Positions 58,924 to 64,000 of a DNA stretch of 64,000 nt are shown here, piece after piece (position 1 is the first letter of the stretch; every line of letters starts with the position of its first letter). The translations under genes were made by a program, and so were the position numbers. The notes below the pieces were generated by a model, which saw nothing but the letters and a program-made list of their open reading frames with translations, was not told the DNA's origin and ran no database searches. This stretch comes from a virus (taxonomy: Duplodnaviria; Heunggongvirae; Uroviricota; Caudoviricetes): the IMG/VR virus record IMGVR_UViG_2778261540_000003, one strand, 5' to 3'.

Positions 58924-60117
58924 GTGACCTGGGACGATCACAAGAAGAATTTTGCTCGCCTGGCGCGAGATGGTGGTTACACCATCGCACAGTATGCCGC
59001 CGAGTTTAATCTTAACCCTAATACCGCACGTCGTTATCTCCGTGCCTTCAAAGAAGACACCAGGACTACGGACAGCCGCAAGCCAAATAAGCCAGTCAGG
59101 AAGCCACTAAAAAGCATGATCATTGATCACTCTAATGATCAACATGCAGGTGATCACATTTCGGCTGAAATAGCGGAAAAACAAAGAGTTAATGCCGTTG
59201 TCAGTGCCGCAGTCGAGAATGCGAAGCGCCAAAATAAGCGCATAAATGATCGTTCAGATGATCATGACGTGATCACCCGCGCCCACCGGACCTTACGTGA
59301 TCGCCTGGAACGCGACACCCTGGATGATGATGGTGAACGCTTTGAATTCGAAGCTGGCGATTACCTGATAGATAACGTTGAAGCGCGGAAGGCCGCGCGC
59401 GCTATGTTGCGTCGGTCCGGGGCCGATGTTCTGGAAACCACTCTTCTGGAAAAGTCTCTTTCTCATCTCCTTATGCTGGAGAACGCCAGGGATACGTGTA
59501 TTCGCCTAGTGCAGGAAATGCGCGATCAGCAAAAAGACGATGATGAAGGTACTCCGCCTGAATACCGTATCGCGAGCATGCTAAACAGCTGTTCCGCGCA
59601 GATAAGCAGCCTGATCAACACCATTTACAGCATCCGGAATAACTATCGAAAAGAAAGCCGGGAGGCGGAAAAGCACGCTTTATCTATGGGGCAAGCTGGC
59701 ATTGTTAAGCTGGCATACGAACGAAAGCGTGAAAATAACTGGTCAGTGCTGGAAGCGGCTGAATTCATCGAGGCGCATGGAGGAAAAGTGCCTCCCCTGA
59801 TGCTGGAGCAAATCAAAGCCGATCTGCGTGCTCCTAAGACCAATACCGATGATGAGGAAAACCAAACAGCATCTGGCGCTCCATCACTTGAAGATCTGGA
59901 TAAAATCGCGCGAGAACGGGCCGCCAGCCGCCGCGCTGATGCCGCATTGTGGATTGAGCATCGTAGAGAAGAAATTGCCGATATCGTCGATACAGGTGGT
60001 TATGGTGATGTCGATGCGGAAGGCATATCAAACGAAGCATGGCTTGAACAGGATCTGGACGAAGACGAGGAGGAAGACGAAGAAGTTACCCGCAAACTGT
60101 ACGGGGATGATGATTAA
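58924..60117 (+). CDS. pacA: Terminase (pacase) subunit PacA
   Basis: 397-aa ORF with GTG start containing the pac site; acidic C-terminus. Confidence 0.85.
59117..59275. other. pac: pac packaging site
   Basis: Seven GATC-containing TGATCA/G hexamers in two clusters (four at 59117-59156, three at 59247-59275) separated by an AT-rich spacer, inside pacA. Confidence 0.85.
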
Positions 60118-62477: not shown

Positions 62478-62568
62478 TGATCCTCCTCCAGAATTGACAT
62501 GGCCAACAACTCACAGCGGATTACACTGGGAGTTGTTGGCCACCATTATAGAAGGATCCAACGAAAAT

Positions 62569-62797: not shown

Positions 62798-63035
62798 AAT
62801 TATGCCTCACTGTATTGACAACACAGAGCCTGAAGCTCTGACCTACTGTTTCACCCATGATCCATGCTGGGGTAATCTAACAACATTGCGCTGTGTGTAA
62901 GATGAGCAATGCATAGCTGTAATGCCGTTGTATAAGGTTTCCCTGTTTGCTCATTTCCTTCTGAGCCGCTCTACAACGCTGAAGACACATTAAATAGTGA
63001 ATCCAAAGTCGTATTACGAAACGGCGGCAAAACTA

Positions 63036-63052
63036 TAATTTATTAGAGCAAT
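63036..63052 (-). promoter_or_regulatory. C1-operator-like site (inverted)
   Basis: Reverse complement reads ATTGCTCTAATAAATTA, 16/17 match. Confidence 0.7.
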
Positions 63053-63118
63053 TGTCAAACAACAATGAAAAACAATCCAGTTTTTGGCTGGTGGAGTGGG
63101 ATTTTTCTCTCAAAATTT

Positions 63119-63135
63119 ATTGCTCTAATAATTCT
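63119..63135 (+). promoter_or_regulatory. C1-operator-like site
   Basis: ATTGCTCTAATAATTCT, 14/17 match, about 80 bp from the inverted copy at 63036. Confidence 0.6.
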
Positions 63136-63178
63136 TGATTTTTATGCGCAGCTGGACGTAAACTCCTCTTCGGACCTA

Positions 63179-63212
63179 ATAACTTCGTATAGCATACATT
63201 ATACGAAGTTAT
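63179..63212. other. loxP: loxP recombination site
   Basis: ATAACTTCGTATA-GCATACAT-TATACGAAGTTAT: exact canonical 34-bp loxP. Confidence 0.98.
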
Positions 63213-63401
63213 CTTAAGGGTTATTGAACATGATCAATTTACCTGTAAATCCATACAGTTCAATACCTTATCAGGTTAAATAGTGATCACTTGATCATTT
63301 GATCAAGGTTGCGCTACGTAAAATCTGCGAAATGTTGGCAGTGTTAGTGCTCCAGATTTCGCGTAGCGCACTTAGCACCACCAATCAATCAGAGGTGAAA
63401 A

Positions 63402-63623
63402 ATGGGATATTCAGCTGCTAAAGTGTCCACTCATCTTGAGCTTGAGAAAAACCGTGGTTACTGGCGGGCAAAAGGGTTTGATCGTGATAGTTGCCAACTG
63501 TCATTATCGCGCGGTGAAGAGAAAATAGAACGCACGCGCGGTCGCTGGCGTTTCTATGACGAGAACCATAAACAGGTAAAGGCAGAGCCAATCCTGTACA
63601 CTTTACTTAAAACTATTATCTGA
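63402..63623 (+). CDS. Small ORF between loxP and cre (cra-like)
   Basis: 73-aa ORF with RBS AGAGGTGAAAAATG ending 8 bp before cre. Confidence 0.4.
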   Translation: MGYSAAKVSTHLELEKNRGYWRAKGFDRDSCQLSLSRGEEKIERTRGRWRFYDENHKQVKAEPILYTLLKTII

Positions 63624-63630
63624 GTGTTAA

Positions 63631-64000
63631 ATGTCCAATTTACTGACCGTACACCAAAATTTGCCTGCATTACCGGTCGATGCAACGAGTGATGAGGTTC
63701 GCAAGAACCTGATGGACATGTTCAGGGATCGCCAGGCGTTTTCTGAGCATACCTGGAAAATGCTTCTGTCCGTTTGCCGGTCGTGGGCGGCATGGTGCAA
63801 GTTGAATAACCGGAAATGGTTTCCCGCAGAACCTGAAGATGTTCGCGATTATCTTCTATATCTTCAGGCGCGCGGTCTGGCAGTAAAAACTATCCAGCAA
63901 CATTTGGGCCAGCTAAACATGCTTCATCGTCGGTCCGGGCTGCCACGACCAAGTGACAGCAATGCTGTTTCACTGGTTATGCGGCGGATCCGAAAAGAAA
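63631..64000 (+). CDS. cre: Cre site-specific recombinase (5' part; continues past window end)
   Basis: N-terminus MSNLLTVHQNLPALPVDATSDEVRKNLMDMFRDRQAFSEHTWKMLLSVCRSWAAWCKLNNRKWFPAEPEDVRDYLLYLQARGLAVKTIQQHLGQLNMLHRR recognised as Cre; loxP about 420 bp upstream. Confidence 0.97.
   Translation, partial: MSNLLTVHQNLPALPVDATSDEVRKNLMDMFRDRQAFSEHTWKMLLSVCRSWAAWCKLNNRKWFPAEPEDVRDYLLYLQARGLAVKTIQQHLGQLNMLHRRSGLPRPSDSNAVSLVMRRIRKE

Follow-up and report, generated by a model that had tools for sequence, protein, structure and literature searches.

Dam sites of the known cre control region and a probable orphan plasmid-type DNA element between loxP and cre in a P1-type phage genome

Introduction

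The 64,000-nucleotide stretch of viral DNA deposited as IMG/VR record IMGVR_UViG_2778261540_000003 (the window, by which we mean the whole stretch analysed) is a phage P1-type genome. Across positions 62900–64000 its identity is 99.9% to the P1 records MH422554 and MH445380; to AF234172, the curated reference, it is 98.3%. This part of the window carries the recombination site loxP, the small gene cra and the 5′ part of the recombinase gene cre. An earlier note on the same DNA had pointed to a cluster of GATC sites and a long inverted repeat between loxP and cre. At a probability of roughly 0.8, this interval is the known P1 loxP–cre control region, its GATCs are Dam methylation sites, and the inverted repeat is an orphan copy of a plasmid-type DNA element and not an RNA switch.

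Layout of the loxP–cre region

The annotated and newly recognized features are listed below. A window position equals the AF234172 position plus 63195; P1 coordinate 1 is window 63196.

63179–63212, no strand: loxP, 13-bp arms around an 8-bp spacer, a perfect 13-nt inverted repeat (I3); annotated in AF234172 and X03453
63232–63235: Dam site 1 (TGATCA), adjoining the −10 of the antisense promoter P2coi; annotated in AF234172 and in the P7 record
63236–63263, − strand: sigma-70 promoter P2coi, −10 TAAATT at 63236–63241 and −35 TTGAAC at 63258–63263; annotated in AF234172
63241–63260: LexA (SOS) box TACCTGTAAATCCATACAGT, overlapping P2coi; annotated in AF234172 and P7, with a readable CTGT-N8-ACAG palindrome
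63285–63288: Dam site 2 (TGATCA), present in this window and in P7; TGACCA in reference P1
63291–63296 and 63299–63304, + strand: alternative −35 hexamers of pR1 (P3cre), both TTGATC; 'put. -35' and 'altern. -35' in X03453, P3cre in AF234172
63293–63296 and 63301–63304: Dam sites 3 and 4 (TGATCA), one within each pR1 −35 hexamer
63310–63370, + strand: 61-bp palindrome-ended element, that is, the inverted repeat; unannotated in P1 records
63310–63327: its left arm, TGCGCTACGTAAAATCTG
63319–63324, + strand: −10 of pR1 (P3cre), TAAAAT, inside the left arm of the inverted repeat; annotated in X03453 and AF234172
63328–63352: interior of the element
63353–63370: its right arm, CAGATTTCGCGTAGCGCA
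63381–63397, + strand: conserved leader CCAATCAATCA, then the cra Shine-Dalgarno sequence GAGGTG
63402–63623, + strand: cra ('cre-associated'), a 73-aa open reading frame
63478–63507: pR2 (P2cre), within cra; −35 TTGATC
63595–63619: pR3 (P1cre), within cra
63631–64000, + strand: 5′ part of cre, with its ATG at 63631; the window stops inside the gene
30007–32025, + strand: dmt, a fused C5-cytosine and D12-class N6-adenine (Dam-type) methyltransferase

These features map one-to-one, at 98–100% identity, onto the P1 cre regulatory region of X03453 (the 1986 cre sequence) and AF234172, in which pR1, pR2 and pR3 correspond to P3cre, P2cre and P1cre. The pR1 hexamers are identical between the window, X03453 and AF234172. 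Compared with reference P1, this isolate has an extra GATC at 63285, shared with P7, and a different haplotype in the loop of the inverted repeat. The product of cra has no match in Pfam or NCBIfam, and the gene was dispensable in a CRISPR interference screen (PMC10695390). The Dam-like methyltransferase that the earlier note had ascribed to the element is indeed encoded: dmt matches the Pfam families PF02086 (D12, E=7e-57) and PF00145 (C5, E=2.5e-36).

The GATC cluster and Dam control of cre

Four GATCs had been noted within about 75 bp. They are present, they span 73 bp (63232–63304), and every one of them reads TGATCA. The window as a whole has an unremarkable number of GATCs (261, with 247 ± 14 expected), and four GATCs within 80 bp are not rare, being seen somewhere in 136 of 300 dinucleotide shuffles. 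Four TGATCA hexamers per 80 bp occurred in none of 300. Comparable GATC clusters are found in the window only at the pac site (59118–59299) and at oriR (26427–26478); the pac site is Dam-dependent.

Existing annotation identifies the cluster. AF234172 labels three of these GATCs 'Dam methylation site 1/2/3 within the regulatory region of cre', and the P7 record annotates all four as Dam sites of the cre regulatory region. Both −35 alternatives of pR1 have a GATC inside the hexamer. Among 90 P1-type lox–cra intervals from viral contigs, with GATCs counted in 82, sites 3 and 4 are invariant (82/82 each), site 2 is kept in 79/82 and site 1 in 71/82. The Cronobacter phage JK004, whose Cre is 77% identical, has GATCATTGATC at the position of the paired −35 GATCs and preserves the order loxP, two GATCs, LexA box, GATCATTGATCAGAT/GATCATTGATC, element and leader. 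No GATC occurs in the equivalent interval of phage D6, which encodes Dre (44%).

Judged by these annotations and by its conservation, the cluster is the set of Dam sites of the known loxP–cre regulatory region, and it has already been described. Sternberg et al. 1986 (J Mol Biol 187:197) name regulation by DNA methylation in their title. The cluster itself brings nothing new: Dam control of cre has been described since 1986 and is recorded in the curated P1 entry, and the earlier suggestion of methylation-sensitive cre control agrees with what was already published.

How methylation would act is drawn from this literature and from the placement of the sites. pR1 is a weak sigma-70 promoter directed toward cra and cre, to its right. 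If its sites were fully methylated at N6-adenine, whether by the host's Dam or by the phage's Dmt, transcription from it would fall; unmethylated DNA, and presumably also the hemimethylated DNA left by replication, would be transcribed better. Methylation reportedly cuts pR1 activity several-fold, which would fit both the 1986 title and the annotation. The most distal GATC adjoins the −10 of P2coi, the leftward promoter controlled by LexA. Against this account, the evidence covered for the sign and magnitude of the Dam effect, and for the promoter it acts on, is a paper title and GenBank notes; the annotated pR1 is poorly spaced (14 or 22 bp); and a strict promoter consensus scan of 62900–64000 missed pR1 and gave nothing.

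Dam-repressed E. coli promoters such as trpR and sulA (listed in PMC4921776) likewise have a GATC in the −35 or −10. The P1 region differs from them in having two overlapping −35 alternatives, each with its GATC, and a phage-borne Dam-type enzyme. The IS10 transposase promoter pIN is also Dam-repressed with a GATC in its hexamer; in such promoters the methylation state sets promoter strength, and in mobile elements it ties expression to replication.

The hexamer of the cluster (63231–63306) is also the one repeated at pac (59117–59275), a sharing that may reflect the use of TTGATC as a −35 or a common binding protein. The equivalent interval of JK004 (locus L301, 2020–2110) likewise contains four TGATCA. 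A fifth GATC, at 63480, lies inside the pR2/P2cre −35 TTGATC (63478–63483), within cra and outside the annotated cre Dam sites; TTGATC thereby serves as −35 three times in the region.

It is very unlikely that the cluster chiefly serves as an array of binding sites, occupied by SeqA when hemimethylated or by pacase, and not as a promoter feature. Pacase recognizes TGATCA/G hexamers at pac, all four sites here have that form, the shuffles never reproduced them, and JK004 has the same number. A T before GATC is, however, favoured anyway where TTGATC is also −35-like, as it is again in pR2. The 8-bp spacing moreover sets neighbouring sites on different faces of the helix, and no pac-like IHF or cleavage site is annotated here.

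The inverted repeat and its element family

The inverted repeat lies where it had been placed, between loxP and the 73-aa open reading frame with cre beyond. Its 18-nt arms are complementary at 16 of 18 positions around a 25-nt loop; of the 23-nt left arm originally quoted, only the first 17–18 nt pair. The window has four repeats of this quality (18 nt, at most two mismatches), where shuffles lead one to expect 0.18. The other three are at 11443, 22497 and 62499, and the one at about 62499–62540 sits between c1 and coi.

A BLAST search with the repeat alone found more than 1,000 large Klebsiella plasmids at 74–79% identity, with both arms retained and a different loop. Pattern scans yielded about 50 copies from metagenomes, and others from Citrobacter, Buttiauxella and Xenorhabdus; these and the copies found by synteny are all 60–62 nt long. 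The genome-collection scan specified 18 bases, for which about 300 chance matches are expected in 596 gigabases; among the matches listed, the usable copies from it were those of Citrobacter, Buttiauxella and Xenorhabdus only.

The family has an asymmetric layout: TGCGCTACGTGAA, an A/T-rich stretch, an AGGGG box and CAGAWTTYACGTAGCGCA, with 18 conserved nt on the right side and 13 on the left. The consensus terminal inverted 13-mers are TGCGCTACGTGAA and TTCACGTAGCGCA. Search patterns fixed alignment columns 1–10 and 52–61, which leaves columns 11–51 unbiased; among these, A12, A13, T17, a G-run near column 32 (G32) and CAGA-TT at columns 44–50 are conserved. The P1 copy belongs to this family. 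It is 61 bp long, it has the inner right motif CAGAW as CAGAT at 63353–63357, and its 13-mers TGCGCTACGTAAA and TTCGCGTAGCGCA each have one mismatch to the consensus. At the position of the AGGGG box P1 reads GGCAGTG; its nearest relatives, L004 with AAGGGGTGAGTGCG and L005 with GAGGGGGTAGTGCG, align there with P1 GCAGTGTTAGTGCT. The Klebsiella IncFIB ortholog, found by synteny, has diverged arms that are still inverted. As far as database records and the searchable literature show, the family has so far gone undescribed; in that literature the arm sequences appear only in an unrelated polymerase chain reaction primer.

Several other identities for the element were tried and rejected. A miniature inverted-repeat transposable element would call for edge direct repeats or a target duplication, and neither is present; the element is single-copy in the window and occupies one place per plasmid record. 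A portable promoter, suggested by TAAAAT in one arm, does not fit because the arm carrying A or G flips at the same loop orientation (L004 versus L005). A single-strand promoter of the Frpo type, considered because the Klebsiella copies lie near psiA, is contradicted by the lack of covariation and by a stem with too little length for a −35 and a −10. The likeness of the consensus arms to the ParB boxA heptamer (ATTTCAC) is broken by P1's own arms. Finally, Cra is a poor choice of repeat-binding protein, since the element is widespread without Cra and Cra has no recognizable domain.

RNA fold or DNA site

The earlier note had also proposed structure-dependent control of cre, with RNA folding as the check. 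The hairpin is stable on either strand, with folding energies of −28.4 kcal/mol (z=−4.1) and −25.7 kcal/mol (z=−5.3), one per strand. The RNA of the pR1 transcript (63331–63430) folds no better than shuffles (z=0.17). Because the left arm includes the pR1 −10, transcription from pR1 starts in the loop, and the resulting mRNA lacks that arm and cannot make the hairpin. A scan of 62900–64000 found no terminator-like U-tract after a stem, and Rfam returned no family match, a permissive threshold giving sub-threshold noise only.

The family offers a separate view of the fold. Across 24 distinct members, stem covariation was 0.060 against a shuffled mean of 0.065, and 349 of 500 shuffles reached the observed score. 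Inner stem pairs are disrupted in about 40% of copies; pairs 14–18 are unpaired in 6–10 of the 24, except pair 17 (2/24). The lack of covariation and the broken inner pairs favour a DNA site recognized by its sequence over a selected fold. An RNA switch for pR1 is not supported, and structure-dependent control of that promoter's transcript accordingly finds no footing here.

A broader version of the idea, in which a hairpin in RNA or in single-stranded DNA attenuates or otherwise controls cra–cre together with methylation, is improbable. It can draw on the high stability of both strands, on the position of the repeat 31 nt before the cra start, on the conservation of the arms in the P1 lineage and on read-through transcripts from left of loxP, which would carry both arms. 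Against these stand the unstructured pR1 mRNA, the lack of a U-tract, Rfam match or covariation, the frequency of broken inner pairs, the right arm that D6 carries by itself and the asymmetry of the conserved ends. Most likely, the element is a double-stranded DNA site bound by a protein.

Association with small Xer-like recombinases

Open reading frames neighbouring the element were clustered without prior assumption at about 52 loci. At 30 of these, one family of tyrosine recombinases, 246–275 aa long, starts 19–300 nt downstream of the element on the same strand. The proteins match PF00589 (E=5e-19) and are Xer-like by NCBIfam and by PDB comparison. They occupy the slot that cra–cre fills in P1, where the element ends 31–32 nt from the cra ATG and 261 nt from the cre ATG. 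Cre itself is not one of these small recombinases (BLASTP gave E=0.029 over 17 aa) and is not detectably closer to them than other tyrosine recombinases are.

One recombinase subgroup has at least 5,000 matching plasmid records, at least 1,080 of them with the element. Its gene order is a ParDE toxin–antitoxin system, the element (for example CP056358 2286–2346), about 290 nt, a 246-aa integrase and a 325-aa replication initiator. IncFIB is the sole replicon type common to the three plasmids sampled, and the replicon is therefore taken as IncFIB. The IncFIB-linked integrase also has a second, degenerate element copy over its own start codon, at L302 3429–3490 (CP056358.1) and in L303 and L304. 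This copy reads TGTGCTACGTGAA aaataactcATG ... CCCCTGCAGAATTCAC, and it is also present in plasmids without the upstream palindromic copy.

The closest relatives of the P1 copy are themselves orphans, namely L004 4005–4065 (NZ_LR890313.1) and the copies on over 1,000 Klebsiella plasmids like it. They sit in a non-coding gap of about 950 nt that runs from a DUF1173 gene to a 201-aa open reading frame upstream of psiA, in the conjugative leading region. A hairpin resembling an intrinsic terminator follows the Klebsiella orphan copy by about 80 nt, and a small RNA gene is possible there.

Mosaic junctions and the cognate-site proposal

The element often marks the place where two loci cease to resemble each other. 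In 22 locus pairs it is held in common together with only one flank. L245 and L276 are identical to 3 nt beyond the right edge of the element and unrelated further on; L245 and L286 have the right flank in common, and their left flanks part about 18 nt out. L250 and L276 have elements identical at 61/61 positions between flanks that are unrelated on both sides, with no target duplication.

Conservation of the element also exceeds that of its neighbour. All 61 of its positions agree in loci whose adjacent recombinase genes are 72–74% identical in DNA (identities taken from well-aligned pairs only) and whose flanks are unrelated; gene identity of that order would predict about 44/61 matches. Between recombinase subgroups the interior is essentially random. 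Arms that are conserved, around an interior that is strongly conserved but particular to each subgroup, are consistent with a site cognate to the adjacent recombinase. This enzyme is the best candidate for the binding protein, and the element would then be an operator, a recombination or accessory site, or both.

A further step would make the P1 repeat an orphan of a widespread, undescribed 61-bp cis-element that is the cognate site of small Xer-like plasmid recombinases, the IncFIB-linked integrase included. We put this forward tentatively, as a possibility with the odds against it, and a number of observations count on the other side. The arm columns were set by the search pattern, so the invariance of the arms is partly a matter of ascertainment, and the synteny-found copies of JK004, L303 and L006 have diverged outer arms. 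Mainstream IncF/IncI integrases, which belong to the same family (about 53% identical) and are more common, lack the element, and no analogous long-spaced repeat was found upstream of their operons. Orphan copies with no recombinase within 4 kb occur in the Klebsiella psiA region and on a Citrobacter chromosome. Similarity between L302 and L304 breaks off some 60 nt from the element. Lastly, the spacing is 35 bp between the 13-mers and 25 bp between the 18-nt arms, unlike that of a lox- or dif-type core; to our knowledge, all known tyrosine-recombinase crossover regions are 6–8 bp.

The same junctions could be taken to mean that the orphan copy of P1 is a working target of recombination, on which IncFIB-type or related integrases of co-resident plasmids join P1 to plasmids or swap modules beside lox–cre. 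Such a role is rather unlikely. It would account for the junction within 3 nt in L245/L276 and for the 61/61 identity between unrelated flanks in L250/L276; it suits an interior that is subgroup-specific and conserved alongside its cognate recombinase, arms of 13 nt (the usual size of a recombinase-binding element) and the conservation of the P1 arms in a window that encodes no such enzyme. It has to contend, however, with a 35-bp separation incompatible with 6–8-bp crossover regions, and with P1 arms that are off consensus around a drifting loop, through which spacer identity with a partner would be lost. Among P1-like phages, moreover, the homology break follows the leader and not the element.

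The P1 copy and its relatives

No homolog of the small recombinase is encoded in the window, and no second copy of the 13-mer pair occurs in it. The P1 copy would thus be an orphan, co-opted into the promoter and leader of cra–cre: a G-to-A change in the left arm would have created the TAAAAT of pR1. P1 uses Cre/loxP, and the arms are nonetheless conserved. Across 37 distinct P1-type haplotypes, one of the 36 arm positions is variable, against about 15% of columns elsewhere in the interval. Nowhere in the lox–cra interval does the P1 lineage vary more than in the loop.

Related phages retain the element in part. In L230 and JK004 it stands at the orthologous place with unrelated loops, and the left arm of JK004 is degraded by an insertion. 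D6 has the right arm only, 26 nt before the dre start codon. The right arm is retained in P1, L230, JK004 and D6, at a fixed 20–31 nt from the ribosome-binding region of the first gene. In JK004 and L230 the cassette of element and leader (CCAATCAATCA with the ribosome-binding site) precedes a different first gene. An extra 356-aa gene lies between the element–leader and cra in these divergent P1-like phages (L230 588–1904, L301 2211–3281), and L230 has an additional 68-aa open reading frame there; neither has a Pfam or NCBIfam match.

Decay offers another explanation, in which the P1 repeat is a relic of the upstream region of an ancestral recombinase gene and serves solely to supply the pR1 −10. 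The hypervariable loop, the lost left arm of D6, the degraded left arm of JK004 and the absence from P1 of the family-typical GGGG box all suit a relic. The explanation is nevertheless doubtful, for a decaying sequence would hardly show a single variable column in its arms, nor a right arm that persists in four phages at a fixed distance from the gene.

Comparison with known systems and significance

The sites of Tn4430 TnpI (the internal resolution site) and of F ResD (rfsF) lie directly upstream of the recombinase gene, and the D protein is both repressor and resolvase. The element resembles these sites in having 13-nt, recombinase-sized motifs immediately upstream of the gene, with a second, degenerate copy at the start codon in the IncFIB type, and in being far more conserved than its gene. 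It differs in inverted 13-mers 35 bp apart without a recognizable 6–8-bp core, and in the occurrence of orphans; it is also a putative site, known from sequence. Integron attC sites offer another likeness: they too are palindromes of about 60 nt, imperfect, conserved at the ends and variable inside, and they are associated with tyrosine recombinases and with module junctions. The ends of the element are, in contrast, unrelated to R''/R' (GTTRRRY), its length is fixed at 60–62 nt, it forms no cassette array, it shows no covariation, and its recombinase does not reach full integron-integrase scores.

Membership of the repeat in this family is modestly novel and of moderate relevance to plasmid and phage-plasmid biology. 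It means that the widely used loxP–cre DNA holds an unannotated element common to at least 1,000 sequenced plasmids, on which it precedes an uncharacterized 'site-specific integrase' beside the repA of IncFIB-typed plasmids. If the element were the recognition site of that integrase, it would be a concrete candidate for the site at which a very common plasmid maintenance module is regulated or resolves multimers, and it would account for conserved non-coding DNA of P1-like phage-plasmids. Its place beside lox–cre would then record shared ancestry of, or exchange between, the dimer-resolution module of P1 and plasmid resolution modules. Co-resident plasmid integrases could bind the P1 copy in trans, altering cre expression or joining P1 to plasmids.

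The left side of the interval and other observations

The LexA box and the antisense promoter P2coi (63236–63263) also lie inside the interval, and the earlier note had overlooked them. P2coi runs leftward over loxP toward coi and c1, according to the AF234172 annotation mapped by offset. This LexA-controlled promoter belongs to the P1 immunity region and stands outside cre control, touched only by Dam site 1. A LexA site overlapping the P1 coi promoter has been reported (PMC4713147, citing Lobocka et al. 2004), and the box is kept in JK004 as ACTGTATATCCATACAGT. The layout about the LexA box is a mirror: TTGAAC-N16-TAAATC on the + strand (63224–63251) faces the TTGAAC-N16-TAAATT of P2coi on the − strand. 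This arrangement is the inverted repeat I1 of the repeat scan (63224–63263).

L035 (JQCU01000025.1, 'Acinetobacter idrijaensis'), a contig of 399 nt, consists entirely of P1 lox–cra DNA and encodes Cra at 98% over 45 aa; it is probably contamination or a fragment of a P1-derived vector. In Lactococcus phage Q33 (JX564242.1, NC_049809.1), 36 nt at 17548–17583, inside the portal protein gene, are 100% identical to loxP, apparently an engineering remnant or contamination of the deposited record.

Just left of loxP, ATTGCTCTAATAA occurs twice, at 63043–63057 on the − strand and at 63120–63133 on the + strand. These copies are candidate operators of the C1 repressor, whose consensus they resemble. 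JK004 has the same ATTGCTCTAATAA-type pair at L301 1840–1935.

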